Sequence record: MK509462
Strand: one strand, 5' to 3'
DNA length: 64,000 bases
DNA from: Shigella phage MK-13
Part shown: one piece after another, positions 2,941 to 54,073 of the stretch
Position numbering within the stretch: the first letter of the stretch is position 1
Layout of the letters: each line of letters opens with the position of its first letter
Translations under genes and position numbers: made by a program
Notes under the pieces: generated by a model
Database searches by the model: none
Told to the model about the DNA's origin: nothing
Seen by the model: the letters and a program-made list of their open reading frames with translations, nothing else

Positions 2941-2970
2941 TTTACATTTATGAAAAATGCAGTATATTAT
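2941..2970 (+). promoter_or_regulatory. Sigma70-like early promoter (-35 TTTACA, 16-17 nt spacer, -10 TATATT)
   Basis: ggTTTACAtttatgaaaaatgcagTATATTat in the 177-nt intergenic region upstream of the 3040 gene; approximate coordinates. Confidence 0.45.
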
Positions 2971-3039
2971 GTTCTCACTACACGGTCAGAACAGCAATAT
3001 GCCGCGAAGACGGTCTTAATAACGAAAGGGTTTTTATTA

Positions 3040-3905
3040 TGTCATATATTCTTCATGTAGATTCTGGAACCAAAATTGAAATTGAAGGCAAAGACGTTAC
3101 GGCTATCCAGGCTGAAATCAAAGAAGCAGGCCTGATGATCGGCAACGTTACCCTGCGCCGTATGGTGGAAGGCGTTCTTCAGTCTGCCAACGGCTTCGAA
3201 CTGATTGAAGGTCTGAGCGCTGAAGAGAAGGAAGAAACTCAGCAGGCTCTGGCGCAAGCCCAAGAGCAAGCCCACGCTGAAGTATCCCTGAAAGACGCTG
3301 AAACCGTTGATGCTGAAGCGCCGATCTCCGCCGACGCAACCGCTGGTGCTGGTAACGCCGACGCAGGTGAAGCCCCAGTGTCCGACGCCCCGGTAGACGC
3401 GGTTAAAGACGCAGTCAACGCAGCTCTGGAAGAAGGTAATCAGCCGTCCGACGCGAAAGTGGGTTCCCTGGCGTCTTCTATGCTGAAAGAAGCGGCGAAG
3501 GGTAAGACCCTGACCCCGCAGGCGGCGCTGGAAGAGCGTAAACGCCGCCATACCAAACGTGAAGAAATGGTTGACGCGGCTCGCGCTTCTAACCACGGTC
3601 CGGTCTTGGCTGCGATTGAAGCAGGAGTTGTCCCAGGTGTGTTCCTGAGCTACGTGAACCCAGACATGCGCTGGTTCCAGTTCCCGGTCACCGAACTGGC
3701 CAACCCTGAAAACCTGCATGCCCGCACCAACACATACGTTGACGTCGCGCCTATCGTTTCCGGTGGCTGGGGCTTCAGTCTGTACGTGAACGGCAAGTCC
3801 TTCACCAAACGCCAGAAGATCAAAGAGGCCGATGCCGAGTCTCTGGTCAAAGCAATCAACGCCTGGTTGCCTCAGGCGCTGGCCGAAGCGAAAGCTGCCG
3901 CGTAA
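3040..3905 (+). CDS. Hypothetical protein (Ala/Glu/Asp-rich central region)
   Basis: ORF 2937..3905, start placed at ATG 3040 after AAAGGG RBS; low-complexity acidic/Ala-rich middle. Confidence 0.5.
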
Positions 3906-3935
3906 TTTAAGTTCAGAAGCTGTTCAATAGATGAA

Positions 3936-3966
3936 GGGGCTGCTATAATAGCAGCTCCTTTTGTTT
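3936..3966 (+). terminator. Hairpin (ggggctgctat-a-atagcagctcc) followed by TTTTGTTTATT; terminator with a TATAAT hexamer in its loop
   Basis: About 11-bp stem and T-rich tail directly after the 3905 stop; loop sequence TATAAT. Confidence 0.5.
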
Positions 3967-3979
3967 ATTGGAGCAGTCT

Positions 3980-4642
3980 ATGTCCTACTCCCTCAAGGGG
4001 TTGCTCAAGCGCCCCGTCCACACATTCATTAAACCGCCTGTCGTAAAGGGGATCTACCCAGCACGAGGGCAACTCTATTACGTCAAAGGCTCCAATGGTA
4101 GCGGCAAATCCACCGTACCGTCTCAGCTGGCGGAGAGGGATCCTCAGGCGTATGTTGTGACACATGACGGCAAGATTATGTTGACGGTCTGCCCGTCATT
4201 CAACGTGGTGTGTATCGGCAAATATGACAAGTCAAAGTCCAAGGGGGTTGATTCCCTGAAGGATACTGAACAAATGCTCTTCGCCCTGAGCATCGCTGAT
4301 CTACCTGAATATCAGGTATACGATGTGATCTTCGAAGGCATTATCCCTTCAACTCTACTGAGTTCCTGGATCCCCCGCCTGACGCGCCCACCGCGCGAAC
4401 TGGTTGTTCTCTTCATGGACACCCCTCTTGAAACCTGCATCGCCCGTGTTAAATCACGTAACGGCGGTGCGGACTTCAATGAGAGCCTCGTGGTAGAGAA
4501 GTGGGAGCGTGTTCAAGACCATCGCCAGCGCCATAAAGGCTTGTTCCCTACGGTGGCCGCAGGTATGATGAAGTCTCACGGTCTAACAGTAGACCAGGCT
4601 GTAATGGCATTCCTCTGTCGTGATTTTGGGAGTATTGATTGA
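3980..4642 (+). CDS. P-loop kinase (Walker A GSNGSGKST); candidate nucleotide or DNA-base kinase
   Basis: ORF 3968..4642, ATG at 3980; Walker A motif near residue 40; stop overlaps the start of the ThyA-fold gene (TGATG). Confidence 0.55.
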   Translation: MSYSLKGLLKRPVHTFIKPPVVKGIYPARGQLYYVKGSNGSGKSTVPSQLAERDPQAYVVTHDGKIMLTVCPSFNVVCIGKYDKSKSKGVDSLKDTEQMLFALSIADLPEYQVYDVIFEGIIPSTLLSSWIPRLTRPPRELVVLFMDTPLETCIARVKSRNGGADFNESLVVEKWERVQDHRQRHKGLFPTVAAGMMKSHGLTVDQAVMAFLCRDFGSID

Positions 4643-5688
4643 TGGAAATCAAAGCAATTAACAACAATGACATGCTGAAGCAGGCTGTCTTGGCTATCCG
4701 CGAATACGGAATTGAATCTGATCCTGGTAATGCGGAGATCAACACCGACGGCACCCGATTCCTTGATGGTGTGACGATTACCGTGGATGATATCCGCAGC
4801 CGCTGGCTGTCTGTTGAAGGTCGTAACTCATCGGCTATCGCTGCCATCGGCGAGACCTTCTGGGTTCTGTCCGGGCGCGATGACGTTCGCTTCCTGTCCC
4901 GCGTGTTGCCCCGCGCCGCCAACTTTTCCGACAACGGCCACACATGGCGAGCCGCTTATGGTCCGCGTCTGTACGCCCATGGCCAGCTGGATAGCGTCAT
5001 CAACCGTCTGCGCAAGAACCCAAACACCCGTCAGGCGTACCTCACCATCTATGACCCGGCTCTGGATTCAGATGCTGGCCTGGCGAAGTTCAGCGAGAGC
5101 GGCGAAGCGAAGACTAAAGACATGGTGTGTAACCTGGCTCTGTTGTTCGCCATCGTTGAAGGTCGTCTGAACCTGACGGTCATCAACCGCTCACAGGATG
5201 TTCTGTGGGGTATGAGTTCAATCAACTTCATTGAGTTCTCTATTCTTCAGGAAGTGATTGCTCGGGTGCTGGGTGTTGATGTCGGCCAGTACAAGCTCTT
5301 CTCTAACAATCTTCATTACTACAACAATGAAGTCAGCCAGAAGCAGCTGGGCAAGATCACGAAGGACACCAAAGTAGAAGCTGGGTTCATCAACTCAATG
5401 ATTCACTTCAAGAACGTGACCAACCAGAACCATATCCGCAATCTGTTCACTGGTGTGCTTCATCACTGTGATATCGGTAGCCCGTGGGAAACTGTGGTCG
5501 CCCACCTGAAGGAATATGATGCTGATCGCGGCCTGATTGTACAGATGGCGTACTGCCTGTACTGCAAGCTGAACGACAAACTCATCAACATGAACCTGAT
5601 TCAGGATCATGGTTTGAACATTGCGCTCACCCATTCTCCAGTTGACCGCAAGATCGTTGATCCTAAGTTCCTGGAAGGTGTGGTATGA
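4642..5688 (+). CDS. Thymidylate synthase-fold enzyme, divergent; candidate pyrimidine (dUMP/dCMP) hydroxymethylase
   Basis: Divergent counterparts of ThyA motifs: RQAYLTIYDP (ThyA RRIIxSAWNP), Cys in DMVCNLALLF (catalytic-Cys region), NRSQDVLWGMSSINF (ThyA QRSxDxxLGxPFN); recognised from memory of family motifs. Confidence 0.6.
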   Translation: MEIKAINNNDMLKQAVLAIREYGIESDPGNAEINTDGTRFLDGVTITVDDIRSRWLSVEGRNSSAIAAIGETFWVLSGRDDVRFLSRVLPRAANFSDNGHTWRAAYGPRLYAHGQLDSVINRLRKNPNTRQAYLTIYDPALDSDAGLAKFSESGEAKTKDMVCNLALLFAIVEGRLNLTVINRSQDVLWGMSSINFIEFSILQEVIARVLGVDVGQYKLFSNNLHYYNNEVSQKQLGKITKDTKVEAGFINSMIHFKNVTNQNHIRNLFTGVLHHCDIGSPWETVVAHLKEYDADRGLIVQMAYCLYCKLNDKLINMNLIQDHGLNIALTHSPVDRKIVDPKFLEGVV

Positions 5689-8724: not shown

Positions 8725-8730
8725 TTGCCA

Positions 8731-10158: not shown

Positions 10159-10220
10159 ATTCAATATCGTGGGTCATAGGGTATAATTCTATGATCTGAA
10201 TGTTAAACCAGGAGCACATC

Positions 10221-10556: not shown

Positions 10557-10571
10557 CAAGAGGAACAACAA

Positions 10572-10892
10572 ATGTCTGTAGAACAAATCGGCTTTTATGC
10601 ACTACCGTCCGATCCCGAGTCTCGCCGCAAGCTGATGGGCGCGATTGAAAACTGCCGCGCCGCCCAGGTACGCATCAAATCGGAACAGACTTTCATTACT
10701 GAGACTCTGGCCGAGCTGGCGAAAGACACGGGCATTAAGGCCAGCGACCTGCGTAAGGTTGTGTCTGACCGCGCGAACGGCACCTACCAGAAAACGATCG
10801 AAACGAGCGAGAAGTATCAGGATCTTTATGAATCCTTGTTCCCGAACGCCAAGCCGGATCGCGACCCAAACGTTGATTCTGCTGAAGAATAA
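10572..10892 (+). CDS. Hypothetical protein
   Basis: 106 aa ORF with RBS (AGAGGAA) upstream. Confidence 0.45.
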   Translation: MSVEQIGFYALPSDPESRRKLMGAIENCRAAQVRIKSEQTFITETLAELAKDTGIKASDLRKVVSDRANGTYQKTIETSEKYQDLYESLFPNAKPDRDPNVDSAEE

Positions 10893-10912
10893 ACGGACCG
10901 AACACCAAGAAG

Positions 10913-10940
10913 CCCAGTCAAGTACTGGGCTTTTTAATTT
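10913..10940 (+). terminator. Rho-independent terminator (gcccagt-caagt-actgggc + TTTTTAATTT)
   Basis: 7-bp GC stem followed by T-run, 20 nt after the 10892 stop. Confidence 0.55.
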
Positions 10941-10948
10941 CAATAACT

Positions 10949-10977
10949 TTACTTTCAAGAATAAAGCGCCTAATATT
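10949..10977 (+). promoter_or_regulatory. Sigma70-like early promoter (-35 TTTACT, 17-nt spacer, -10 TAATAT)
   Basis: aactTTTACTttcaagaataaagcgccTAATATtt about 30 nt upstream of ATG 11008; approximate coordinates. Confidence 0.4.
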
Positions 10978-11007
10978 TAATCTCTATTGAAGAGTTGTTA
11001 CTAAATC

Positions 11008-12538: not shown

Positions 12539-12539
12539 C

Positions 12540-12890: not shown

Positions 12891-12950
12891 TTCATTAAAC
12901 GATTCACCCCATATAATACATGGGAACTTACACAAACGAGGACCACACTA

Positions 12951-13559
12951 ATGTCACTGAAAAACTTTCTGAAACGCATCTTCACCACTGTTGAAGCCAA
13001 CGTCACCACGGGTCTGGATAAACTGACCGGCACCGAAAAGCGCCTGAACCTGGCCGCTCGCAAGCTGTCTGATGAAATCCGCCGCCTGGAAGAAGCCCGT
13101 GTCGCCAACGTTCGCAACGGCGTCAAGCTGAAGAAGACCGCAGAACAGAACCTGGGTGAAGCTGCCAAGCGCGAAGAAGTCCTGAAGGACGCCATCGCTC
13201 GCGGTGTCACGCCAACCCGCGCCGACGCCCTGATTGTCCTGCATCGCCGTCGTATTGGCGAAGCCCTGTTGGCTCAGGTGAAGGACATCGAAGCAAGCAG
13301 CGACAAACTGAACGGTGCGATCATTCAGCTGGGTGACAAACTGGACGAAGTGAAGTCCAACCTCGAGCTGGTTCGTGTTCAAAAAGAGACGAACGACCTG
13401 GGTCTGGTGCTCCCTGAAGATATCGATTATGCCGCTGGCATGACCACCATCGATATCGATGCCATCCTGCGCGAAACCGAAATCGCTGATTCGAGCTACT
13501 CAGCTAACAGCCCGTCGTCTATCGAAGCTGACAACTACCTCGCCAGCCTGAGCAAATAA
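12951..13559 (+). CDS. PspA/IM30-like coiled-coil protein (candidate membrane-stress or remodelling protein)
   Basis: N-terminal amphipathic FLKRIFTTVEANV resembles the PspA N-terminus (FSRFADIVNANI); rest is heptad-rich coiled coil; inference only. Confidence 0.4.
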   Translation: MSLKNFLKRIFTTVEANVTTGLDKLTGTEKRLNLAARKLSDEIRRLEEARVANVRNGVKLKKTAEQNLGEAAKREEVLKDAIARGVTPTRADALIVLHRRRIGEALLAQVKDIEASSDKLNGAIIQLGDKLDEVKSNLELVRVQKETNDLGLVLPEDIDYAAGMTTIDIDAILRETEIADSSYSANSPSSIEADNYLASLSK

Positions 13560-13601
13560 CATCGGAGGGGCTTATGCCCCTCTATCACTTCGGGGGATCT
13601 T

Positions 13602-14135
13602 ATGATCAATCTTGATTCTTTCGGCATACTCACTGGTGTTGCTGCTTTCGTTCTTTTGTGTATTGGCAGTGCCTGGCTGAGAGGTCGACTGGAGAAACGG
13701 GAAGTCTTGAAGCGAGATCGTGTTGACATCCACAAAATAATGCTGGATAGAACTTGCAAACATGGTCCCAGCGGTGACTTCCGTTTGTATTATTTGTCGG
13801 ATGAAGTCACCCCTTCGGAATTCTTCAATTATGCGATGACTGGGCTGCATTGGCCGGAGATAAATGGCGTTGTTCAGAAAAACGATTACGTGTGCGCGAA
13901 TATGTTCTATCTGAACAAGCATGGGGAACGTGACGATCTGCGGATGTGGTTCTTTGGAAGAGAGGAACAAAGAGGGTTCGTAAAAGAACTTGCTCTCTTG
14001 CTTAACACGTACGAAAAGGCTGGTTGCCCGCCACTAGAGGTGGAAGAATCAGTAGAATCCATCGTGGCTCGCGCCCGTGGTGAAACCGTGGATCTACTGA
14101 ACAAATACGGCTTTGTCTGGGCGGAGGGTTCGTGA
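13602..14135 (+). CDS. Membrane-anchored protein (N-terminal TM helix)
   Basis: 177 aa; hydrophobic N-terminus ILTGVAAFVLLCIGSAWL. Confidence 0.45.
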   Translation: MINLDSFGILTGVAAFVLLCIGSAWLRGRLEKREVLKRDRVDIHKIMLDRTCKHGPSGDFRLYYLSDEVTPSEFFNYAMTGLHWPEINGVVQKNDYVCANMFYLNKHGERDDLRMWFFGREEQRGFVKELALLLNTYEKAGCPPLEVEESVESIVARARGETVDLLNKYGFVWAEGS

Positions 14136-14326
14136 TGGATACAGAAACATTTGCGGTCATCATCAGCATAACAATCGCTCTGGCATCCATTGGTATGCTT
14201 GGGCATTTTGAATCCTTGGTAGGCGCGTTTAGGGAGTTCTTGCAAAAACGCAAGCGTGCTAGAGAATTGGACCGACTTCCACATACTGACCTCATCGTGC
14301 ATAATGCCAGGAGGAGGCGCAAATGA
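14132..14326 (+). CDS. Small membrane protein
   Basis: 64 aa, hydrophobic segment AVIISITIALASIGMLG; ATGA overlap. Confidence 0.35.
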   Translation: MMDTETFAVIISITIALASIGMLGHFESLVGAFREFLQKRKRARELDRLPHTDLIVHNARRRRK

Positions 14327-14514
14327 AGTTCATTGAGACGGTAATGTCGGTTGTTATGACAGTCGGGGCATTGTTTGGCATAGCGTTGCTGTTCTTATGG
14401 TTCTTCTACATCGGTGTACGGTACTTAGAACACAAGAAACGCCGTACTAAGAAAGGGCGTCCAAAGAACGTCGACATCATTATCAGCCAAGCAAGATCCC
14501 GCACCCGCCAATAA
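14323..14514 (+). CDS. Small membrane protein with basic C-terminus
   Basis: 63 aa; TM-like VMSVVMTVGALFGIALLFLWFFYIGV followed by a KR-rich tail; ATGA overlap. Confidence 0.4.
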   Translation: MKFIETVMSVVMTVGALFGIALLFLWFFYIGVRYLEHKKRRTKKGRPKNVDIIISQARSRTRQ

Positions 14515-14525
14515 TCTATTGAAGT

Positions 14526-14560
14526 CCCCAGGGTTATAATAGCAGCACATATAACCCTGG
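14526..14560 (+). other. Intergenic hairpin (cagggttata...tataaccctg) carrying TATAAT in its 5' arm, directly upstream of the ligase RBS
   Basis: 10-bp inverted repeat; shares the 12-mer tataatagcagc with the hairpin at 3941. Confidence 0.4.
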
Positions 14561-14569
14561 AGACACCAC

Positions 14570-22222: not shown

Positions 22223-22272
22223 GGTCTCAGCCCTTAAATAGATAGAGTGTTATGGCTATTTAGGACTAAATT

Positions 22273-23516: not shown

Positions 23517-24026
23517 TTACTTGTCAGGGTTCACTAAAACAGGGGTGGATACCAGTTCGCCGTTCTTCACAGAATGCTGGACTACAGCACACTGATCGAC
23601 CATGCGATATACTTCAATTCCAGCAGCCAGCATTTCAATAATGCCGTCTGTGATTCGGTACGGTATATTGTAGATGACCTTCTTGATAGCGCAGCTTTTG
23701 ATTATCAGCTGAGTACAAACAGGGCATGGGCTGTGTGAGACGAACATCGTCAGATCAACGCGGTTGTCCAATGCTTCAGGGATGCGCATCAAAGCGTTCT
23801 CTTCTGCGTGGACAACCCCGACTGATACCAACTCACCGTCTACTTCCTGCTCACAGACATTAGGAGCGCCAGGAGCAGTCCCGTTCCAACCGATGGCAAC
23901 AGGTTGGTCGGTCTGTTCATCAACGATAACACAGCCGACCTTCAGGCGCCGAGCATAGCTGGACAGTGCATATGCATGAGCCGAGCGCATGTGCGCAAAC
24001 ATCATACGGGGCTTGATAGTCATCAC
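23517..24026 (-). CDS. dCMP deaminase (T4 cd-like)
   Basis: Zinc-binding cytidine/deoxycytidylate deaminase motifs HAEENA and SPCPVC. Confidence 0.75.
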   Translation of the reverse strand: MMTIKPRMMFAHMRSAHAYALSSYARRLKVGCVIVDEQTDQPVAIGWNGTAPGAPNVCEQEVDGELVSVGVVHAEENALMRIPEALDNRVDLTMFVSHSPCPVCTQLIIKSCAIKKVIYNIPYRITDGIIEMLAAGIEVYRMVDQCAVVQHSVKNGELVSTPVLVNPDK

Positions 24027-24424
24027 TCACCTCTCAGAAGACGGGCGAAACGTTCAACAATCCGGTTGCGCGGTTTCACAGGGACGACTTCATTAATTGT
24101 GATCGCCATCCTGTAATTGGTGGAAAAGTCACAATCCGATTCGAAGGTGTAAACCTTCTCACCAGAGTACCCACTTTTGTAGTAATCCTCACAGAGTTGT
24201 GAAGACTCTACGATGGAATTTGCCACCCTCCAGTGCCCTAAAAGATATTGCCCCTGCACATCATCTTTGATGACATCCAAAACTGCTTCGAATTCACCTG
24301 ACATGACGGTCCTGAACGCCACGTTCGCTTCGTCGCCCTCTGGAAGGTATGCGTGGGTTCTGGACCAAATTTCTACGCCATCATCAACTCGGACTAGGGA
24401 GAACCCCAGCAAATATCTTTTCAT
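24023..24424 (-). CDS. Hypothetical protein
   Basis: 133 aa; ATGA coupling. Confidence 0.4.
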   Translation of the reverse strand: MKRYLLGFSLVRVDDGVEIWSRTHAYLPEGDEANVAFRTVMSGEFEAVLDVIKDDVQGQYLLGHWRVANSIVESSQLCEDYYKSGYSGEKVYTFESDCDFSTNYRMAITINEVVPVKPRNRIVERFARLLRGE

Positions 24425-24735
24425 GACACCAACGCCTTTTCCAGGAAGAAGATCATATCGTCCTGGTCTGCACGACCGAAGATCTGACCCATGGCGACCA
24501 TCTGGTGAACTTCCCTGGCAATGATTTCTTTACCAGGAGTAACTTCATCCAGGTCCATGATAGTGCTGACGCGGTCTACCATGCGCGGCGGGTGATTGAT
24601 GTAGCGCTGCAGGTACTTCTCGCGAGTGGCGATCAGGTTGTTCAGCTCGGCGATTTCAGACTCATCTTCTGAGAAGCGCTTTTCCTTCGCCTGCAGTTCA
24701 GCCAGGCGCTCATACATTTCTTTTAATGGGGTCAT
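24421..24735 (-). CDS. Hypothetical protein
   Basis: 104 aa, coiled-coil-like. Confidence 0.4.
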   Translation of the reverse strand: MTPLKEMYERLAELQAKEKRFSEDESEIAELNNLIATREKYLQRYINHPPRMVDRVSTIMDLDEVTPGKEIIAREVHQMVAMGQIFGRADQDDMIFFLEKALVS

Positions 24736-24744
24736 TTCCGGTTC

Positions 24745-24779
24745 CTCTTAATAAACTAAGGGGAAGTATATACTCCCCC
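24745..24779 (-). terminator. Hairpin (ggggaag-tatata-cttcccc type) with T-rich tail on the minus strand
   Basis: GC stem with TATATAC loop between minus-strand genes; approximate coordinates. Confidence 0.4.
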
Positions 24780-24805
24780 TTCTTCAATAACCGCTGAATC
24801 TTTAT

Positions 24806-26341: not shown

Positions 26342-26421
26342 AACAGACGGTTTTCATATCGCCTCTCCCGAGGATTCATTGGTGAAACAATGATACTCTA
26401 TCCTGGATATAGAAAAGCCCC

Positions 26422-26781
26422 TCACGGGGCTTCATCTTCTTCAGATTTGAATACTTGCCATCGGCCTATTCCACACCATTCTCCGGTGTTGTTAGAGTAG
26501 CGGGTTGTTCTGGGTCCACCGATTTCATATCCCCATTTGAAGAAACTCCATCTCTCTTTCAGGGTCGGCGGCTTGTTACCCACCGACAAGGAGCAAGCGG
26601 TGATCCAGCGCATGATACTGATGGCCTGGAACGCTGGATGAACAAACAGAGAGTACAGAACTCCCAACGTCACCACGAGGAATACTGTCACTGTTATGAC
26701 GCCGACGAATTCGAAGAATGCGCTCATCCTACCACCTCCAGACCCATCAAGTCTTCCATAGTCTTTTGAATGCGCAGCCAA
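26422..26781 (-). CDS. Membrane protein
   Basis: 119 aa with hydrophobic helix VGVITVTVFLVVTLGVLYSLFV; true start may be the internal Met. Confidence 0.35.
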   Translation of the reverse strand: MAAHSKDYGRLDGSGGGRMSAFFEFVGVITVTVFLVVTLGVLYSLFVHPAFQAISIMRWITACSLSVGNKPPTLKERWSFFKWGYEIGGPRTTRYSNNTGEWCGIGRWQVFKSEEDEAP

Positions 26782-27356: not shown

Positions 27357-27971
27357 TTACGCCTCCTCGTCGATGATTTCTTGTTCATCTTCGACAATCA
27401 TGATACCATCTTCAATCAGATCCGACAGATCCATCAGATCATCATCGAACCCGTCTCCTTCCCTGATATAGAAGACTGGGACGACACGACGGCGGGTCTC
27501 TTCATACACGCTTTCAGCGATCCGGTTAATATGGCGCACTACGCTGTAGAGGTTCAGACCACCGATGCCACAGCCGATAGCAGGCAGGCCGACATAGACG
27601 GTTTCGTCTTTAGTTGCTTCCACAATTTCGTGAACCTGCTCAAACAGGGTCTGAACAGAACTGATGACAGACGGCATGCGGGCATTCGGACCTGGATAGA
27701 ACTGAGTGTAGAGGTTCGCGCCCCAAACGCCCTTGCTGTGGTCGAATGCATAGGACATGCCACCCAGGCGTTGCTCTGGACCACGAGGGTCGTTCGCATC
27801 GGCTTCACGCAGGGCGGGGAAGTTGTTGCCGATATGCAGAGCAATACCCGCGCCCATGGTAGACCAGCAGTTGGCACCATGGGCAAAGATGTTGATCAGA
27901 TTAAAGCTGCAGGCGGCTTTCAGTAAATCACCACCGTTGATTACATATGTGGTCATGCGTACTGTCTCCAT
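27357..27971 (-). CDS. Macro domain protein (ADP-ribose binding/processing)
   Basis: HGANCWSTMGAGIALHI matches the macro N-x(4)-GGG-VxxAI region and VGLPAIGCGIGGLN matches the PAISTG-VYGYP region. Confidence 0.5.
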   Translation of the reverse strand: METVRMTTYVINGGDLLKAACSFNLINIFAHGANCWSTMGAGIALHIGNNFPALREADANDPRGPEQRLGGMSYAFDHSKGVWGANLYTQFYPGPNARMPSVISSVQTLFEQVHEIVEATKDETVYVGLPAIGCGIGGLNLYSVVRHINRIAESVYEETRRRVVPVFYIREGDGFDDDLMDLSDLIEDGIMIVEDEQEIIDEEA

Positions 27972-28195: not shown

Positions 28196-28220
28196 TTTGT
28201 CTTACCAAACAAGGGGTCAA

Positions 28221-28238
28221 GGCGGTAATGATACCGCC
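28221..28238 (-). other. Intergenic hairpin ggcggtaatgataccgcc flanked by T-runs
   Basis: 6-bp GC stem; TTTTTCTTC on plus strand; TATTGAAGAA motif adjacent on the minus strand. Confidence 0.4.
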
Positions 28239-28245
28239 TTTTTCT

Positions 28246-28656
28246 TCAATAGAGGTCTTCGGAAAAGAGTTCACGGAATGGGGTTGTCTTCAGGCGCACC
28301 TGATTGATTTGTCCGGCTTCACGGGCTACGACGCAAGCCTCTTCACGAGTGAGGAAGTTGCCCTGATTGTCGATAAAGCCCTGTTCACGGGTATGGGTGG
28401 ATTTAATCACACCAGCCTCTTTCAGGATCTTGAGCTGGCTGTTCATGAATTTGCTGTGGTGACGGTCGGCAACGACGATCACGTCACCATATTTGTTGGC
28501 GGCAGCGACCACACGGCGCTCCCAGGCACCTTCGGCAGGAAGGTCACGGGTGTACAATGGAACCATCGTATCACCGATGTCATTCCCCTTCACCTGTGAG
28601 AACAACTTGCCTTCAGTGCCCGTTGGGAGTTCGCGAAAATAACCTAGTAATTTCAT
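28246..28656 (-). CDS. Hypothetical protein
   Basis: 136 aa ORF. Confidence 0.45.
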   Translation of the reverse strand: MKLLGYFRELPTGTEGKLFSQVKGNDIGDTMVPLYTRDLPAEGAWERRVVAAANKYGDVIVVADRHHSKFMNSQLKILKEAGVIKSTHTREQGFIDNQGNFLTREEACVVAREAGQINQVRLKTTPFRELFSEDLY

Positions 28657-28659: not shown

Positions 28660-28977
28660 CTATTCAATCCAAATTTCAGGTTCAGGGATGTCGACCATAT
28701 CCACTGTCTGGTTCTTCAGATCATGGAAACAGTCGCCGAGGAATTGTATTTTGCCGTCGGTCAGGAACAGATGGCAACGTGATGCTGGATCAGATGCATC
28801 CACCAGCAGGCTCGGCGTGAACGTAGGAGCAACGACATTGTTGTTCCACGACCACATCGGACCTTGGGCATCACCCTTCACGCGATATGGGTGAAGCATA
28901 TCACATCCAGGGCAGTGAAAATACAGGGAATCACCCATAGACAGAAGTTTAGGACTCAGAAGCTGTGACATGGTCAA
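28660..28977 (-). CDS. Hypothetical protein with Cys/His cluster
   Basis: 105 aa; HCPGCD...H...CH pattern. Confidence 0.4.
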   Translation of the reverse strand: MTMSQLLSPKLLSMGDSLYFHCPGCDMLHPYRVKGDAQGPMWSWNNNVVAPTFTPSLLVDASDPASRCHLFLTDGKIQFLGDCFHDLKNQTVDMVDIPEPEIWIE

Positions 28978-29303: not shown

Positions 29304-30635
29304 TTATAGGCCAAGAGCCTTTTCAAGGTCATCAAGGTCTTCAGTGTAAAGATCGATGTCCTCTTTCTTACTTAATTCCTTGTGCTGTGCTTCAAGGTTC
29401 TCAATCTGCTTGAGTAGGCGCTCACGGGCGTCCAGGGTGATGGATGACAGCGGCATCTTGAACAACTCGTCAAGATCACCGCCAAAGTCCGGGTAGTCCT
29501 GCATGAACAGAGACTTCAGCACGTCAATCTTTTGGCGGAGATCAACACGCGTCGCCCATTCAATGAACACCGCCCGGTCACCCAGCTTGCGGATCCTGTC
29601 TGCCATGTCCTTCAACAGATACTGGCGACGATCTTCATACCGCGACAGGCGATAATTGAAGAACGGCAGCAACATATCCTGCCAACCCGCATAACGATGG
29701 ATTACCCCGTCTTCATCCCATGCTGTCCAAACAGGCTTGTTAGCAGAGTACAACTTGAACATCTGCTCAACCTGTTCATCACTCAGCTTAGAGAGTTCAC
29801 CCCGCTTGAATACAACCGTGATATCCCAGCCGTCTTCGGTCGTGTCGTTGGCGTACTCGGTCAGGATACCAGCCTTGTACAGAGGCAGCAACACCTTGGT
29901 CTCATAGGTCTTGGCGAACCAACCCACTGGGACTTCGGTGATATGCAGGGTGGTGGCATTGACGCGACGGAAGATGCCGCGACTGTATGCTCTTCCTTCC
30001 TCAGTATAGCCTGTCTCCCCTTTGTAGCCGTTCCAGTACGGTTTTAAGTCTTTCGGGTCTTCGCCACGGAGAAGCGCTCTCAGGGCACTGAGCACGGACT
30101 TAACGCAATGACACGGGGTGTCGGTGGAATATCCGGTGCCGATACCATTGATCCCATTCACCAGGAACATAGGGAGGATAGGCAGGAAGAACTTCGGTTC
30201 CAGTCTTTCTTCACCAAGGTAATTGTATTCTAAAATACCCTCATCCTCCTTGCGGAAGATCTTGCGGATAACATCAGATATAGCCACCGAAATGTATCGG
30301 GCAGATGAAGCATCACGCCCCATGATAGAACCAAACTGGCCGTCGCGGTCAAAGTACGGGATGTTGTTCGTACCTGGGAACCCCTGAGCCATGTTCACGA
30401 TAGTGCCGCTCATGTTCTCACCACCAGACTTGTAGTTGGTCCGGGCGGCGGCGAACATACCAAGGCGGTCAACGATCTCCTCCTTGTTGTACTCAAGAGC
30501 AGCGAAAAGGATCTTGCGCTGGCTCGGCTTGAGGCTGTCAATCAGCTGAGGAATTTGACGGATGCTGTTGACCACAGAAAACTGCTTATGGTCAGTGTTG
30601 ACAAAGTCCGTTACAGTAATGCTCTTGGCAACCAT
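29304..30635 (-). CDS. DNA topoisomerase II medium subunit (T4 gp52-like, GyrA-like)
   Basis: Lies immediately downstream of the GyrB-like large subunit gene; start moved to the internal ATG preceded by AGGA just after the upstream stop. Confidence 0.6.
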   Translation of the reverse strand: MVAKSITVTDFVNTDHKQFSVVNSIRQIPQLIDSLKPSQRKILFAALEYNKEEIVDRLGMFAAARTNYKSGGENMSGTIVNMAQGFPGTNNIPYFDRDGQFGSIMGRDASSARYISVAISDVIRKIFRKEDEGILEYNYLGEERLEPKFFLPILPMFLVNGINGIGTGYSTDTPCHCVKSVLSALRALLRGEDPKDLKPYWNGYKGETGYTEEGRAYSRGIFRRVNATTLHITEVPVGWFAKTYETKVLLPLYKAGILTEYANDTTEDGWDITVVFKRGELSKLSDEQVEQMFKLYSANKPVWTAWDEDGVIHRYAGWQDMLLPFFNYRLSRYEDRRQYLLKDMADRIRKLGDRAVFIEWATRVDLRQKIDVLKSLFMQDYPDFGGDLDELFKMPLSSITLDARERLLKQIENLEAQHKELSKKEDIDLYTEDLDDLEKALGL

Positions 30636-30636
30636 C

Positions 30637-32550
30637 TTATTCATCCTCAGTTTCAAACAGGCAAACATCGCTAAACCAGGTTTTGCGGTAATCGGCGGCC
30701 TCATCACCGAAGCCATTCTTCAGTGACTGTTGATAGCCATCGTCCAGCGTGACCGTCGTAGTATACGCATCCAGGTTGTTTAGAATACGTTTGAAGTCTT
30801 CAGTGCTGTTACCGCCAAGACCTTTCAGATATTTCTTCTTCGTGATCTTCTTGGCATCAGGCGTCTTCAGGAACTCCTCATACTCGGCGTTGTTCATGAA
30901 CTCATGCATCACCTTACCACACCATACACGCATGTAAGGGGTGCGCAGGAGCTTCAGCCTGCCCTGACGGACGTACTCCGGCCAGTAGGTGCAATACAGG
31001 GTGATCAACAACCCACGGATGTGAATACCGTCATCGTCCGCATCGGTAGCCACAACAGTCTGTGGGTAGCGGCTGATGTCAAGTGGCTGACCGGGCACTG
31101 CGCCGCCGTGAATCGTACACAGGTTCTTGAACTCTTCATTGTTCATCACCTTTGTGCGCGGGGCGTTCAGGCAGTTGATGAACTTACCACGAAGCGGGAA
31201 CAATCCGATCTTTTTGGTGTCACGGGCGTTCAGGATAGGATTGGAGGCGCTATCACCCTCGGTCAGTAGCAGGGAGCATCCGCTGCGGTCACCACGGGCG
31301 GTCGCCGGGTAATACTTCTCAATCTCACGATAATCCCGCTTGCTGATATCCTTCTTGGCCTTTTCAAACTCAGCATCATCCTGCTCATTGCGCAGGGAAG
31401 CCAGTTCTTTGCTCAGACCAGCCATAACGAACTCAAGCGCCTTGCGGATGAGTTTGTCACTCGGTTTGTACGACGTACCGAACTGGCTTACAGGAGTGGT
31501 CATGCGCTCCTTGGTCTGGCTGTCAAAGCGCGGGTTGTTGATGTCGACGGCAATGAACAAGGACATGTGGTTCTTGATCATGGCAGGTTTCAGCTCGGTC
31601 TTGAACTTCTTCACCAGCTGAGGACGAATCGCAGCCACGATCTGGTCGGCGACATAATCAACGTGAGGACCACCGATGTGGGTGGCAATAGAGTTCACGT
31701 ATGATGCGTGCATGAACGTACCGGATGAAGGGGCTACAGCAACCGACCATTCACCAGATTCATCAACAGCGGAACCAGCATGGAAGTAATCAACGAAGTG
31801 ACCAAAGCGGTCAATCCGGATTTGCTTCCCGTTCAGCACAACCTTCAGGCGCGGGTTACACGCAGCCACTTCAAACGCGCGGCGATAGATCATCAGCAGG
31901 TTGTTCTGGTCAAGCCCTTTGACGCCCAGGCGAGCATAGTCAGGAATCCAGGCGATGGTGGTGCCGAACTCTTTCGGTGTATTGCTGATGACCGGATTAG
32001 ACTTCTTGCTCATGTTGTCTTCAAACAGCTGGGCATAAGACTTCTTGCCGTCGCTGGTAGCAACACGGAACCACTTTGAGAACACGTTGACGAGCGAAGC
32101 CCCTTCACCGTTCTGGCCACCAGACTTCTGGTTGTTGTACTCTTCGTCTTCGTCGTTGAAGTTGCTGCCTGCATACAGGGAGCCGAAGAGCATCTCAGGC
32201 AACCACTCGTTGGTAACACCGTGCTTCACAACAGGGATGCCCCCGTTATCGGCCACGATGATTTGACCGTTCATCGGGGAAACCGTGACAGTGATTTCCG
32301 TCAGGGATTTACCCTCAGGCGTCTTGCTGTGGTCAACACAGTTGGTGATGATTTCATCAAACTGTTTGATCAGGGCGGGGGAGTACTCAAAGTTGTCACG
32401 GAAAATGACTTGGTCTTTGGTTGGGTCGTACACCCACACCGTACCAACAGACGAACGGATGCTGCCCAGATGACGCTCTGGGCGAAGGAGGATATGCTCG
32501 ACGTGAGTGAGCTTCTTGTACTTGCGTTCAATATCAATTTTATCAGACAT
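30637..32550 (-). CDS. DNA topoisomerase II large subunit (T4 gp39-like, GyrB-like ATPase + Toprim), single unsplit ORF
   Basis: 637 aa; N-terminal GHKL region (HILLRPERHLGS, FDEIITNCVDH, VADNGGIPV) as in T4 gp39; continuous reading frame. Confidence 0.75.
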   Translation of the reverse strand: MSDKIDIERKYKKLTHVEHILLRPERHLGSIRSSVGTVWVYDPTKDQVIFRDNFEYSPALIKQFDEIITNCVDHSKTPEGKSLTEITVTVSPMNGQIIVADNGGIPVVKHGVTNEWLPEMLFGSLYAGSNFNDEDEEYNNQKSGGQNGEGASLVNVFSKWFRVATSDGKKSYAQLFEDNMSKKSNPVISNTPKEFGTTIAWIPDYARLGVKGLDQNNLLMIYRRAFEVAACNPRLKVVLNGKQIRIDRFGHFVDYFHAGSAVDESGEWSVAVAPSSGTFMHASYVNSIATHIGGPHVDYVADQIVAAIRPQLVKKFKTELKPAMIKNHMSLFIAVDINNPRFDSQTKERMTTPVSQFGTSYKPSDKLIRKALEFVMAGLSKELASLRNEQDDAEFEKAKKDISKRDYREIEKYYPATARGDRSGCSLLLTEGDSASNPILNARDTKKIGLFPLRGKFINCLNAPRTKVMNNEEFKNLCTIHGGAVPGQPLDISRYPQTVVATDADDDGIHIRGLLITLYCTYWPEYVRQGRLKLLRTPYMRVWCGKVMHEFMNNAEYEEFLKTPDAKKITKKKYLKGLGGNSTEDFKRILNNLDAYTTTVTLDDGYQQSLKNGFGDEAADYRKTWFSDVCLFETEDE

Positions 32551-33958: not shown

Positions 33959-34459
33959 CTAGCCCAGAAACACTACTAAAGTCAAATTTGTGAAAGCACT
34001 GCGGCTATTGCGCAACATTTCATGGGCGGCAGCCAAGCGTTTCGGATCATGAAGTGTATCAGAGAACACGATGATGTTTGCTTTATCGATACCCGTGCCC
34101 ATGTAATGGGAGATGGTTGTCGTGTGCTGTTTCTTGTCTACATCGGGTGGCGGTACATCCGCGCCTGCTCGGGAGTGGAAGAAATAATCGCGTTCACGAA
34201 CGCTATGGAAGACGCCCATGATGTTGAGGTTGTTCTCTGTCTGGAAATCATAGGACAGAATCTTCTTCAGCGCGGCGGTATGCCCAGTCTGGCGCAGCAT
34301 GCGATAGTACAGTATGTTTCCAGGACAGGTGGGGTCCGTCACGCCTCCCCTCGATTGGCGATCTTTCTGGATTTCATACGCATCCAGGATAAGTTGTTGG
34401 ACCATTCCAATATGGGCAGTCAGGGAGATTTCTACTTTACGCTTGATCATGGATTTCAT
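33959..34459 (-). CDS. Hypothetical protein
   Basis: 166 aa ORF. Confidence 0.45.
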   Translation of the reverse strand: MKSMIKRKVEISLTAHIGMVQQLILDAYEIQKDRQSRGGVTDPTCPGNILYYRMLRQTGHTAALKKILSYDFQTENNLNIMGVFHSVRERDYFFHSRAGADVPPPDVDKKQHTTTISHYMGTGIDKANIIVFSDTLHDPKRLAAAHEMLRNSRSAFTNLTLVVFLG

Positions 34460-34530
34460 TTGGTGTATCCTCAGTTAGGTTCCGCTCATGGGGAACGGGT
34501 CCATTATACACCGAATACTGGAAATGAAAA

Positions 34531-41125: not shown

Positions 41126-41204
41126 AGTATAGAAATCCTATCAATGTCAAAGGGAAACATATTGATTGAGTGGGTATGATACTGTGGTGGGCTTCAATTG
41201 AAAA

Positions 41205-42761: not shown

Positions 42762-42762
42762 G

Positions 42763-42800
42763 AAAAAGGGGATAGAGCAATAATACCCTATCCCCTTTTA
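42763..42800 (-). terminator. Bidirectional terminator-like hairpin (ggggatag...ctatcccc) flanked by A-run and T-run
   Basis: 8-bp stem; AAAAA upstream and TTTTATTGAAGAA downstream on the plus strand. Confidence 0.5.
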
Positions 42801-42811
42801 TTGAAGAACGA

Positions 42812-43243
42812 TTAGTCTTCAGATTCTACAACCCCACCGCGCAAATCCTGAACAGGCTTTCCGTCAGGTGCCATAATATAGATGGTGTTGATAGTCTCAA
42901 ACCAAGACAGCTGGTCGATCCCTTCAGTATACGGCGTTACTGGAACAGAAGTCTTGACCTCTTTGCCTTTCGTGTTCGGATGTTCAACCACATCCAAGAA
43001 CGCACAGTTCCCGCTCGGGTGGATCACACCATCAGTAAACAGCACGATCTTCTTGCGAGGGTTGCTGGCCTCACCCAGGCACACCACCAGATGATGAATC
43101 ATCTCGGGGCGGGTAATCAACGTGTCGTCACGGATGATACCTTGCTTGATAGCAGAGATCACCACTTCGTCTAACAGCGCCTGCTGCTGGTCCAGCGTCA
43201 GTGATTCAGTAAGTTTCAGAGCCATTATTCGTACCCCAAACAT
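42812..43243 (-). CDS. Hypothetical protein
   Basis: 143 aa ORF. Confidence 0.4.
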   Translation of the reverse strand: MFGVRIMALKLTESLTLDQQQALLDEVVISAIKQGIIRDDTLITRPEMIHHLVVCLGEASNPRKKIVLFTDGVIHPSGNCAFLDVVEHPNTKGKEVKTSVPVTPYTEGIDQLSWFETINTIYIMAPDGKPVQDLRGGVVESED

Positions 43244-43357
43244 TTGTTTAAGAAAGTCAGAACGTCATCCATGTTCTTGACTTCAATTTCAATGCCAAGC
43301 TCCTTTGCCAGCGTGTTGGCGTGCTTGACGATTTCTTTATCACGTTCTGACATGATA

Positions 43358-43933
43358 TCAGCCTTTGAAGTTGATCGGTTTCTGAACCCCAGCGTCGAAC
43401 GCGGCCTGGGTACGGGTATCGCTCACCACCTGACAGGTCTTGTCAAGATCGATGCGCGGGTAGCCAAACATGCCAGCGATCAACGAACCAGGGAACTGAG
43501 CCAGCTTGGTTTCGTACATTGCGCAGATATCCAGCTTCTTGGTCTGACTGATGCGGAATTCATCACGCCCAGAACTGATCACCACCTGGATCTCTTTGTA
43601 CAGGCTGGAATCGAACTGAATGTTCTGCTCCTGGATCCACTGCATAACAGCCTTGGAACCATCAGCGCCATAACGCCCTTCGAACGTGCCTTTGATCACT
43701 TCCTTCAGGCCGTCTTTGTACATGTCAGGAATCTGCGCCGTCTCCTGAACTTTGAGCGTGTAGTTGCTCAGGTAGTTCTCTGAGTCTTTGTTGAACTTCT
43801 TGACCTGTTGCTCAGTGCGGTTGAAGTCGTTGAAGTAGCTGATGACTGTGCCGATGCCGACAATCACCATGCCCAGCAAAGCCAAACCAACGATCCAACC
43901 TGTTGCAATACCCTTAGATTGAGACATTCTCAC
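43358..43933 (-). CDS. LemA-like membrane protein
   Basis: N-terminal TM helix then YFNDFNRTEQQVKKFNKDSENYLSNY...; overall resemblance to the LemA family; inference. Confidence 0.35.
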   Translation of the reverse strand: MRMSQSKGIATGWIVGLALLGMVIVGIGTVISYFNDFNRTEQQVKKFNKDSENYLSNYTLKVQETAQIPDMYKDGLKEVIKGTFEGRYGADGSKAVMQWIQEQNIQFDSSLYKEIQVVISSGRDEFRISQTKKLDICAMYETKLAQFPGSLIAGMFGYPRIDLDKTCQVVSDTRTQAAFDAGVQKPINFKG

Positions 43934-43945
43934 TTCCTCTTTTGA

Positions 43946-45653: not shown

Positions 45654-45677
45654 GATGTATTTCCTTGCAAAAAGAAA

Positions 45678-45712
45678 GGGGAACGGGCTAATATTAACCC
45701 ATTCCCCTTTAT
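45678..45712 (-). terminator. Hairpin (ggggaacggg...cccattcccc) with T-runs
   Basis: Long GC-rich stem; TTTCTTTTT follows on the minus strand. Confidence 0.45.
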
Positions 45713-45736
45713 TGAAGAACGCAATCGCAATCAGAT

Positions 45737-45903: not shown

Positions 45904-45939
45904 GATAATATCCTCACTTTATAGGTGAGGATATTTATA

Positions 45940-47647: not shown

Positions 47648-47708
47648 ATTGAAACGGCTGCCATAACCAGACCGACGAATAACAGATAATTAGACAACCG
47701 TTTCATGA

Positions 47709-48931: not shown

Positions 48932-48940
48932 GATGTCCTC

Positions 48941-50067: not shown

Positions 50068-50094
50068 CTGTTTGTCAAAGGGTTAACAGGGGGA

Positions 50095-50124
50095 ATTATA
50101 TCCCCCTTTGGTTTATTGAATCAA
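50095..50124 (-). promoter_or_regulatory. Sigma70-like promoter (-35 TTGATT, 18-nt spacer, -10 TATAAT inside a GGGGG/CCCCC hairpin) upstream of the lipoprotein gene
   Basis: Minus strand aaggTTGATTcaataaaccaaagggggaTATAATtccccc; overlaps the polymerase stop; approximate coordinates. Confidence 0.45.
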
Positions 50125-53120: not shown

Positions 53121-53181
53121 GTAATTCTCCAGGTTATCCGTGCCGTTAGCACGTGAGCATATTTAACCATAGAGCCATTCA

Positions 53182-53772
53182 TTGACCAAGGAGTTTATTA
53201 TGGCAATCCCCCTCGTTGGTATGATCCCAGGGGCGCTCAAGCAACTCTGGAACCTCGGGACTGATTTGATCCAATATAAGCGGGAAGTTGTTCAAGCCAA
53301 ACACGACGTCAAGCTGGAGGCCATCAAGTCCTCCTCAGATTGGGAGCTGTCTAAGATCACCGAAGTCGGCGGATCTTGGAAAGACGAATTCTGGACTATC
53401 GTGTTAGCCGTACCCGCTATCCTCGTCATGACTGCTCCGGTTGTGGAACTGATTTTGTTCCCTGGTGAGTATCATAAAGGGGATTTCATCAAAGCAGTAA
53501 TCGGTGGCCTCCAGGCGCTCGATACCGCACCTGAATGGTATACCTATTCATTATTGACAGCAATTAGTGCATCATTCGGTATCAAAGGCTACAACCACTA
53601 CAAAAGCAACGGGCGAAAAGCCCAGGCTGTGGATGCTCTCAAGCAGTTTGGGGTCAGGGTCGTACAAAAAGATCCCACTGTTGTTACTCAGTCGGGTGCT
53701 CCCGATCTTGAGTCTGCTCCCCCAGCTGGGTCTACTGCGACCTCTGGTGCGTGGCCTAATCTGAAGAAATAA
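53182..53772 (+). CDS. Membrane protein
   Basis: 196 aa with hydrophobic helices; start may be the second Met. Confidence 0.4.
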   Translation: MTKEFIMAIPLVGMIPGALKQLWNLGTDLIQYKREVVQAKHDVKLEAIKSSSDWELSKITEVGGSWKDEFWTIVLAVPAILVMTAPVVELILFPGEYHKGDFIKAVIGGLQALDTAPEWYTYSLLTAISASFGIKGYNHYKSNGRKAQAVDALKQFGVRVVQKDPTVVTQSGAPDLESAPPAGSTATSGAWPNLKK

Positions 53773-53777
53773 GTTCA

Positions 53778-53805
53778 AGGGGAGGAAACTCCCCTTTCTT
53801 TTGGT
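53778..53805 (+). terminator. Rho-independent terminator (aggggag-gaaa-ctcccct + TTCTTTTGGTGTTT)
   Basis: 7-bp stem with T-rich tail directly after the 53772 stop. Confidence 0.55.
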
Positions 53806-53814
53806 GTTTAGGGA

Positions 53815-54027
53815 ATGAAAGTGGTAAACAAGAGATTGCTCGTCACCCAAGGCGGGGCGACGATAGTGCGCGGAAGGATCTATGAACAGACACAGCTGGG
53901 TGATCACAAGACACGCCTGACTGTTAAGGCTCCCGATGGTGGTTGGCCGACAAAGGTGATTGTCCCAGACGGTCTCATAGAACGAGGGTCGGCAACGTAC
54001 AAGGGAGCAGAGTTCAAAATTTATTAA
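53815..54027 (+). CDS. Hypothetical small protein
   Basis: 70 aa ORF. Confidence 0.3.
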   Translation: MKVVNKRLLVTQGGATIVRGRIYEQTQLGDHKTRLTVKAPDGGWPTKVIVPDGLIERGSATYKGAEFKIY

Positions 54028-54044
54028 AATATTTATTGAATAAA

Positions 54045-54073
54045 GTTTACTTCTTCAATAACTGGCGTATACT
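54045..54073 (+). promoter_or_regulatory. Sigma70-like early promoter (-35 GTTTAC, 17-nt spacer TTCTTCAATAACTGGCG, -10 TATACT)
   Basis: Intergenic 54028..54119 upstream of ATG 54120; approximate coordinates. Confidence 0.45.

Follow-up and report, generated by a model that had tools for sequence, protein, structure and literature searches.

In bacteriophage T4, middle promoters have no -35 element; its place is taken by a MotA box that is centred near -30, at 12±1 bp from a stringent sigma-70 -10 (PMC2988021). These promoters drive genes for replication, nucleotide metabolism and tRNAs (PMC2988021). Here we describe a short word, TTCAATAA, which recurs between the genes of a 64,000-nucleotide stretch of Shigella phage MK-13 (MK509462; hereafter the window), and which is probably the upstream recognition box of the pre-replicative (early- or middle-type) promoters of its phage family, the Ackermannviridae.

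Combinations of promoters and hairpins have also been described in T4-type phages. The PeSL cassettes of RB49/phi1, T4/PST and KVP40/nt-1 are short conserved units of stem-loop and promoter, repeated in intergenic regions and often bordering variable genes. In the T4 genes e, soc, 49 and I-TevI the promoter lies inside hairpin DNA, and transcripts that lack the 5' arm escape the structure (PMC3014915). The genome papers of the phages Ag3 and CBA120 report only about eight sigma-70-like promoters (PMC3184105, PMC3121705), and according to the CBA120 paper early promoters are not identifiable by informatics and MotA and AsiA are absent in ViI-like phages (PMC3184105). The promoters of phage LIMEstone1 were predicted with T4 consensus sequences. 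TTCAATA(A) is not reported as a ViI-like promoter element in the open-access full texts that were searched, to which the 2012 'Viunalikevirus' paper of Adriaenssens and colleagues may add an earlier description; its abstract reportedly mentions conserved regulatory sequences.

Origin of the sequence and genomes compared

Over long stretches the window matches Salmonella phage SKML-39 and Shigella phage Ag3 at 95-98% identity. The phage is an Agtrevirus of the Ackermannviridae (ViI-like) with ~97% identity to SKML-39, and the gene model of the window was taken over from SKML-39 through tblastn. The complete SKML-39 genome (159,624 bp, 208 genes) was the test bed for genome-wide analysis. Nineteen Ackermannviridae loci were retrieved with the DNA polymerase as relatives, among them L018, which shares only 66% polymerase identity with the window; ligase loci were also compared.

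An intergenic word in the window and in SKML-39

A first-pass annotation of the window had pointed to TTCTTCAATAA and similar strings at seven places, beside hairpins and in both orientations, and had suggested that they belong to a conserved promoter spacer. A copy is present at each of the seven places, always between genes. Five of them (14516, 24780, 28242, 42798 and 45709) abut a hairpin.

The repetition of the word is genuine and far from random. With at most one mismatch, TTCTTCAATAA has 12 matches on the two strands of the window against 1.04 expected, and 100 dinucleotide shuffles of the window gave a maximum of 4. The conserved unit, though, is shorter than had been proposed: it is the 8-mer TTCAATAA, and the TTC prefix is optional and found in some copies only. 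This 8-mer is the commonest intergenic 8-mer of SKML-39, with 23 copies in 12.5 kb of intergenic DNA against 5 in 147 kb of coding DNA, a ~49-fold higher density; the longer TTCTTCAATAA occurs there seven times between genes and never within them. In the window, the core 7-mer TTCAATA has 13 copies in 2.8 kb of intergenic and 12 in 55.8 kb of coding sequence, and its intergenic density is ~23-fold higher. The enrichment between genes, whose absence had been named beforehand as the result that would speak against the motif, is thus found in both the window and SKML-39. A resemblance of TTCAATAA to the boxes of IHF, sigma-32, FNR or ARG was considered and dropped, as none of them seemed a convincing match.

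Spacing of the box from a sigma-70-type -10

When the intergenic copies were oriented by the direction of the neighbouring genes, two arrangements were distinguished, here called type A and type B. In type B, which outnumbers type A by ~3 to 1, TTCAATAA or one of its variants TTCTATAA and TTCATTAA is followed after 12±1 nt by TAnnnT. The distance from box to TAnnnT has its peak at 12 nt (9 of 53 copies, 6 with a match of at least 5/6 to TATAAT) and a minor peak at 6 nt, which is type A; in curated type B sites the spacing is mostly 11-13 nt, with a few cases of 10 or 14. The composite of box, N11-13 and -10 has 53 matches in SKML-39, compared with 10.0 in dinucleotide shuffles (maximum 14), and 27 in the window, compared with 3.9±1.8 (maximum 8), so that it is over-represented 5- to 7-fold. 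Within the window, 17 of the 27 matches fall in the 12.9% that is non-coding. Sense-oriented copies of the box, at 31 sites in SKML-39 and 15 in the window, start mostly 50-66 nt before the start codon. We count ~16 type B candidates in the window (Table 1); an automated scan gave 15 hits there, three of which belong to the type A promoter at 10939-10991.

The genes downstream of type B sites encode ligase, the sliding clamp, RNase H, enzymes of nucleotide metabolism, rIIA and tRNAs, and structural genes instead carry CTAAATAcCcc or TATAAATA. Because the type B genes are of the pre-replicative kind, we read TTCAATAA as the probable -30 box of pre-replicative promoters. In relatives, the composite also stands 9-14 nt upstream of the mature tRNA-Asn and tRNA-Trp genes, in three of them as TTCAATAA-N11-TATAGT, and a coding or translational signal therefore cannot explain its conservation there. 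The window has four tRNA genes (Ser, Asn, Tyr, Ile) at 59787-61019 (-), with a TTGACA-type promoter-like site just upstream of tRNA-Ser.

Comparison with the T4 MotA-dependent middle consensus had been proposed in the first-pass annotation, and it holds for the geometry and not for the sequence of the box. As in T4, a phage box near -30 takes the place of the -35, lies 12±1 bp from TAnnnT, precedes the same kinds of genes, and coexists with sigma-70-like early and gp55-type late promoters. Unlike in T4, the box is TTCAATAA and not (a/t)(a/t)(a/t)TGCTTtA, it occurs reversed as well, the -10 often lies in a hairpin loop, and no MotA or AsiA homologue was detected in the annotation and the Pfam scan described below. 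The consensus of 14 type B sites, ..Tt.TTCAATAAc.........ggTATaaTTg, has no conserved hexamer 16-18 nt from the -10, where sigma-70 promoters have their -35, and TGn is rare. A generic sigma-70 scan gave 16 sites against 12±3.5 expected, which is no enrichment.

These data bear on the alternative that the sites are constitutive early promoters of the host polymerase, in which TTCAATAA is a -35- or UP-like contact of sigma-70 region 4 or of the C-terminal domain of the alpha subunit (alpha-CTD) and no phage factor takes part. Such promoters seem to us a rather doubtful explanation. While the -10 boxes match sigma-70 well, TTCAAT would sit 14 nt from the -10 in type B, outside the usual 16-18, and nothing is conserved at 17 nt. 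The AT-rich word is found in either orientation and at -45, -30 and -22, a latitude that UP-like contacts can show, but the tight 12±1 spacing and the near-invariant 8-mer look like a specific protein site. TTGATT-N18-TATAAT can be read at one site, and the gene layout calls for many early-active promoters (PMC3184105); the word is, however, absent from related phages of the same hosts' wider group.

In three cassettes of the window (14516, 24790 and 28252) the box is reversed, (C/T)TATTGAA, at the same 11-12 nt spacing to the -10. The reversed copy before the ligase gene is kept in every relative. Reversed copies were also considered as antisense promoters, and this was rejected since no -10 follows on the opposite strand.

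Hairpins around the -10

The hairpins recorded beside the word in the first-pass annotation belong to the same unit, with the -10 boxes as their loops. In the automated scan, the -10 hexamer was centred in the loop of a GC-rich hairpin at 10 of the 15 window hits and 17 of the 31 SKML-39 hits, and the lowest folding energies of the cassettes are 7 standard deviations under those of shuffled sequence. In a set of 77 intergenic SKML-39 hairpins with perfect stems, a TAnnnT loop goes with an upstream box (Fisher p = 4e-4; counts for loop versus box 7/6/6/65), and ~40 plain tetraloop terminators have neither. The hairpin of cassette B8 (42808) was followed through ten distinct relatives, where 100% of cells pair, compared with 48-68% in slid controls, and compensatory changes on both sides were found at 3 pairs. 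The cassette after the polymerase gene has the stem GGGGGA/TCCCCC in the window and GTGGGG/CCCCAC in L018, with box, spacing and GATAAT/TATAAT loop kept.

Cassettes B2, B8 and B9 combine a GC-rich stem with a T-run, the features of an intrinsic terminator. The LIMEstone1 record labels the orthologues of B8 and B9 as terminators, and the records of the phages Mutine, May and Menlow do so for that of B8. In LIMEstone1 the terminator annotated at the B8 orthologue has the -10 of a 'putative promoter' inside it, the B9 orthologue is a terminator only, and no feature is given for the box. The Ag3 record has no regulatory features annotated in the corresponding region. The 42808 region is carried by 268 database genomes, and among the matches listed its annotation is no more than a terminator or a ribosome-binding site.

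That the word is part of a terminator or a signal at the RNA level (a bidirectional-terminator A-tract, a processing site or an anti-Shine-Dalgarno sequence), and not a promoter element of the DNA, appears highly improbable. In B2, B8 and B9, AATAAA does run into the A-tract that forms pairs with the T-run, and in B9 the purine-rich ribosome-binding region offers a pairing partner for UUCUUC. Yet many copies without a hairpin keep the 11-12 nt spacing (in L018, at 25984, 39041 and 150202 of SKML-39, and at the tRNA promoters), the tetraloop terminators lack the word, and it is found in both orientations, which an RNA signal would not tolerate.

A ribosome-binding site lies in the 3' arm of the ligase cassette (14516-14562) and of a late-type cassette at 45907-45939, and not in the other cassettes. 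In this, and in having a candidate promoter in the 5' part, they resemble the hairpins of T4 e, soc, 49 and I-TevI. Those T4 promoters, however, are late promoters and the effect is translational, whereas here most hairpins are terminator-like and leave the ribosome-binding site free. PeSL cassettes differ in their order, with a stem-loop ahead of a complete -35/-10 promoter; type B sites lack a -35, use the 5' arm as spacer and have their -10 within the loop. We favour the view that type B sites are distinct, family-specific promoters without a -35, nested in terminator hairpins, and as such probably a variant of T4-type designs.

Late-promoter-like words, CTAAATAcCcc and TATAAATA, are also built into hairpins, in the loop or the 5' arm (Table 1). 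They occur as back-to-back pairs in both divergent intergenic regions of the window, 985-1037 and 22223-22272.

A second arrangement resembling T4 early promoters

Type A sites consist of (G/C)TTTAC(T), a spacer of 16-17 nt, and TATACT, TAATAT or TATATT. Three are present in the window (2941, 10948 and 54046) and nine between genes of SKML-39, and the recurrence of a TTTAC-type -35 noticed in the first-pass annotation is borne out. The two promoters that it had spelled out are found exactly as written: TTTACT, ttcaagaataaagcgcc and TAATAT upstream of the 11008/11020 gene, and GTTTAC (54045-54050), ttcttcaataactggcg and TATACT upstream of the gene at 54124, which had been placed at 54120. All three window sites have a sigma-70 -35 and -10 (TTTACA/TTTACT, N16-17, TATATT/TAATAT/TATACT). 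The likeness to T4 early promoters extends to the (G)TTTAC(T) -35, the spacer length and the -10, and agrees with the published T4/PST early consensus TTTACW-N17-TAYWAT (PMC4122927). Unlike T4 early promoters, type A sites lack TGn and have TTCAATAA in the spacer or upstream, where T4 has A-tract UP elements; at 54046, no TG precedes the -10, and the upstream region carries TTCAATAA/TTATTGAATAA and not A-tracts.

In the window, the word lies within the spacer at two of the three type A sites, A1 (2941) being the one without it, and at all three a copy stands shortly before the -35. In SKML-39, (T)TCTTCAATAA or a degenerate form of it is found in five of the nine spacers, with 6 nt between its end and the -10. 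Nearly every type A site has another copy of the word shortly before the -35, oriented one way or the other. L018 keeps TTTACT-N3-TTCAATAA-N6-TAnnAT, with TTATTGAT upstream. The PeSL order of stem-loop and then promoter is seen at some type A sites only, for example at 10920-10976 of the window and 63365 of SKML-39, and not in type B. The A3 region is absent from LIMEstone1.

The word had been explained in the first-pass annotation as a conserved, phage-specific spacer element of (G)TTTAC promoters, with the copies beside hairpins as more of the same architecture. For type A this stands to the extent that the word is in the spacer at 5/9 SKML-39 sites, is kept in L018 and is specific to the family, and that these promoters fit the T4/PST consensus. 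It fails for the copies beside hairpins, all of which lack TTTAC upstream and instead lie 12±1 nt, not 6, before a TATAAT-like loop hexamer without any -35 hexamer. With type B in the majority and the A1 spacer devoid of the word, an early-promoter spacer is unlikely as a general explanation; the promoter reading of the annotation applies to a minority class, and the bulk of the motif marks type B. The converse, that type A is type B in disguise, was rejected, as 12 nt past the spacer copy the sequence is TCTAAT or TCATTC, without A at position 2.

Two type A promoters of SKML-39, at 27370-27440 and 63389-63460, also have a leader of ~25 nt in common (TTCATTCCATAAGCAG...GAAATGAAGGAAC), which could be a duplicated cassette or a conserved element of the 5' untranslated region.

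Family-wide conservation and gene replacement

Cassettes are present in 19/19 Ackermannviridae polymerase loci, including L018, with stems that differ and a structure that is kept, and the ligase loci of relatives carry the ligase cassette. When a 181-nt query was compared with Klebsiella phages, only the 44-nt cassette still aligned, at 91% identity. Outside the family, the composite had no match in 395 kb of more AT-rich distant polymerase relatives, compared with 1.96 per 10 kb within it; it is also absent from locus L025.

Short blocks of the window are strongly diverged from SKML-39, with genes 47-78% identical, amid DNA that is 97-100% identical (Table 1). Blocks begin or end at cassettes at 42808, up to which the gene upstream of B8 diverges, at 54081-54125 next to A3, at ~26401-26414 and at 14461-14515. 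The B9 (45719) cassette is identical in relatives, yet two different, unrelated genes then follow. A trait of PeSL cassettes, that of conserved repeated units at gene-replacement borders between close relatives, is thus shared.

Recombination might then be the primary role, with the cassettes as PeSL-like islands at which crossovers swap neighbouring genes and with promoter features that are secondary. The borders of blocks 42801-43400, 54081-54380, 26401-26640 and 14101-14500, the 45719 cassette and the PeSL precedent (PMC4122927) agree with such a role. We judge it improbable as the primary one, since it leaves the fixed distance from box to -10, the distance to the start codon and the placement at tRNA genes unexplained. 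T4-type PeSLs are, moreover, themselves functional promoter-terminator units, so that recombination adds to the promoter reading and does not replace it.

Proposed mechanism

If TTCAATAA is a promoter box, as we favour, its end in type B, 12±1 bp upstream of a sigma-70-type -10, would put it at about -32 to -25, in place of the -35. Host RNA polymerase would hold the -10 via sigma-70, and a hypothetical DNA-binding factor encoded by the phage would recognise the box in the way that MotA recognises its own box in T4. About two thirds of type B promoters have their -10 as the loop, or at the centre of the dyad, of a GC-rich hairpin at the end of the upstream gene, and several of these hairpins have a T-run. 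A transcript coming from upstream would include both arms of the hairpin and would end there or, in one case, have its ribosome-binding site masked. A start ~7 nt past the -10 would lie inside the 3' arm; since the new transcript would lack the 5' arm, it could not form the stopping or masking hairpin and would read on. Each cassette would thereby be a terminator with a promoter nested inside. At type A sites, the sigma-70 holoenzyme should recognise TTTACT-N16/17-TAnnnT unaided, and the box is in operator-like positions, in the spacer or upstream of the -35, where the same factor could modulate or shut off the promoter. Given these positions, one factor could damp the early promoters and activate type B.

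Taken together, this could amount to a system of the Ackermannviridae that resembles sigma appropriation, in which a hypothetical protein unrelated in sequence to MotA and AsiA reads the -30 box TTCAATAA and switches host RNA polymerase from TTTACT promoters to ~25-30 promoters per genome that lack a -35 and are set within the terminator loops of the genes before them. We put this forward tentatively, as a possibility somewhat short of even. If it is true, each gene module would end and restart transcription within ~45 bp. In a bolder variant, extrusion of the hairpin as a cruciform may expose the -10 as single strands and aid promoter opening.

Several points weigh against the box as part of a factor-dependent promoter. 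Promoter activity is deduced from sequence throughout, and the factor proposed to read the box is hypothetical. The annotation of the 208 SKML-39 genes lists no homologue of MotA or AsiA, which leaves room for remote structural analogues, and a Pfam scan of ten window proteins gave nothing relevant to either. The protein encoded at 10572-10892 was considered as a candidate factor. It is annotated as a regulator, has a helix-turn-helix (HTH)-like stretch, adjoins box sites and matches phrog_639 only; it belongs to no Pfam or NCBIfam family and has no sequence match in PDB beyond the HTH-like stretch, and its single-sequence AlphaFold model, all-helical with a predicted local distance difference test (pLDDT) score of 80.5, has no Foldseek match in PDB. 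Position is its sole link to the box, and we regard this candidate as a dead end. The reversed copies at the same 11-12 nt spacing are hard to square with an oriented monomeric activator. Nor does a dimer on the 11-bp quasi-palindrome TTATT(G/C)AATAA fit them, a site that was rejected because its centre falls at -30 in forward and at -27/-26 in reversed sites, 3-4 bp apart. The hairpins of B3, B4 and B10 have no T-run, so that not all are classical intrinsic terminators, and that of B4 folds no better than shuffles. At 50120, TTGATT-N18-TATAAT can be read, and some sites might work with sigma-70 alone. Finally, much of the conservation among close relatives is shared ancestry.

A family-wide box with fixed geometry nevertheless offers a testable answer to the question of the missing early promoters: it yields ~25-30 candidate promoters per genome, predicted starts, and a bait sequence for the factor. 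Phages of the Ackermannviridae are widely used in biocontrol of Salmonella, E. coli O157, Klebsiella and Dickeya, and better maps of their transcription units would be useful for engineering and annotation. A promoter inside a terminator loop would be a compact design principle of some general interest.

Candidate sites and other features of the window

Table 1. Copies of the word, candidate promoters of types A and B, late-promoter-like words and divergent blocks. Positions are those of the window unless SKML-39 is named; B12 is a weaker candidate and B13-B16 are variant candidates.
Feature	Position (strand)	Box and -35	Spacer	-10	Hairpin and other features	Downstream gene
Word copies at the seven places	10984-10991; 14516-14523; 24780-24790; 28242-28252; 42798-42808; 45709-45719; 54051-54061
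Extra word copy	54033-54043
A1	2926..2968 (+)	TTCAATAA 2926-2933, 6 nt, GTTTAC/TTTACA 2940-2946	N16	TATATT 2963-2968		3039-3905
A2	10939..10991 (+)	TTCAATAA 10939-10946, TTTACT 10948-10953	N17 with degenerate copy TTCAAGAATAA	TAATAT 10971-10976	reversed copy CTATTGAA in leader, 10984-10991; predicted terminator hairpin just upstream, 10920-10938	11008/11020
A3	54033..54073 (+)	palindromic copy TTATTGAATAA 54033-54043, GTTTAC/TTTACT 54045-54051	with TTCTTCAATAA 54051-54061	TATACT 54068-54073	divergence from SKML-39 starts at ~54081-54125	54124-54680
B1	1743..1779 (+)	TTCTATAA	N12	GATAAT	-10 in loop of CCCGTTC...GAACGGG; -18.6 kcal/mol, z -2.8	1805
B2	3923..3966 (+)	TTCAATAG	N13	TATAAT with TGn	-10 at dyad of GGGGCTGCTATAATAGCAGCTCC, then TTTTGTTT (terminator-like); -27.7 kcal/mol, z -6.5	3980
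B3	10160..10196 (+)	TTCAATAT	N14	TATAAT	-10 in loop of GGTCATAG...CTATGATC	10221, 10572
B4	12891..12924 (+)	TTCATTAA	N13	TATAAT	-10 in loop of weak CCCAT...ATGGG hairpin, z -0.6	12951
B5	14516..14562 (+)	reversed word CTATTGAA	N11	TATAAT	-10 inside 11-bp-stem hairpin; -20.4 kcal/mol, z -5.2; ligase ribosome-binding site GGAG within 3' arm; kept in all relatives	DNA ligase 14570
B6	24758..24790 (-)	reversed word TTATTGAA(GAA)	N12 (or N10)	TATACT (or TATATA)	-10 in loop of GGGGGAG...CTTCCCC; z -2.8	24735-24424
B7	28219..28252 (-)	reversed word CTATTGAA(GAA)	N11	TATCAT	-10 in loop of AAGGCGGTA...TACCGCCTT; z -2.9; equivalent present in SKML-39	28195-27953
B8	42763..42808 (-)	TTCTTCAATAA	N12	TATTAT	-10 in loop of 16-bp hairpin, then TTTTT (predicted terminator); -25.8 kcal/mol, z -5.1	42749-42384
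B9	45669..45719 (-)	TTCTTCAATAA	N12	TAATAT	-10 in loop of 16-bp hairpin, then TTTCTTTTT (predicted terminator); -28.3 kcal/mol, z -6.0	45653-45441
B10	50088..50120 (-)	TTCAATAA	N12	TATAAT	-10 is loop of AGGGGGA...TCCCCCT; directly after DNA polymerase gene	50058-49717
B11	58546..58590 (-)	TTCAACAA	N12	TAAAAT	-10 inside hairpin AGGGGTTTAA...TTAAACCCCT	58524-57826
B12	63531..63554 (-)	TTCAATAA	N10	TAAAGT	no hairpin	63504-63361
B13	26390..26414 (-)	TTCTATAT	N11	TATCAT	borders divergent gene (60% amino-acid identity to SKML-39)	
B14	57764..57810 (-)	TTCTATAC	N14	TATGAT	-10 in loop of CTCCTGTAGA...TCTACAGGAG; -25.1 kcal/mol, z -7.2	
B15	41176..41202 (-)	TTCAATTG	N13	TATCAT	directly after predicted terminator	rIIA
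B16	34503..34528 (-)	TTCATTTC	N12	TATAAT with TGn	directly after predicted terminator AAAGAGGC...GCCTCTTTTT	histone-like gene
Late-promoter-like words	45907-45939 (-); 56445-56451 (-); 56345-56351 (-); 999-1005 (+)/1019-1026 (-); 22234-22240 (+)/22257-22263 (-)
Late-promoter-like words, SKML-39	62011-62038; 67111-67134; 28752-28780
Blocks diverged from SKML-39	14101-14500; 23981-24620; 26401-26640; 34081-34440; 42801-43400; 54081-54380; 57581-59440

Some genes of the window call for comment. The gene at 3980-4642 (+) carries the SKML-39 label 'terminase small subunit' (phrog_800). This label is probably wrong, because thymidylate kinase and polynucleotide kinase families match as well, the gene adjoins thymidylate synthase, and SKML-39 has a second small terminase gene beside the large one. 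SKML-39 also has a ~600-bp HNH homing-endonuclease gene between its two topoisomerase II genes, which the window lacks at 30616-30638. The 202-aa protein encoded at 12951-13559 (+) matches the PspA/IM30 family (E = 1.9e-9), which is unusual for a phage replication-gene cluster.

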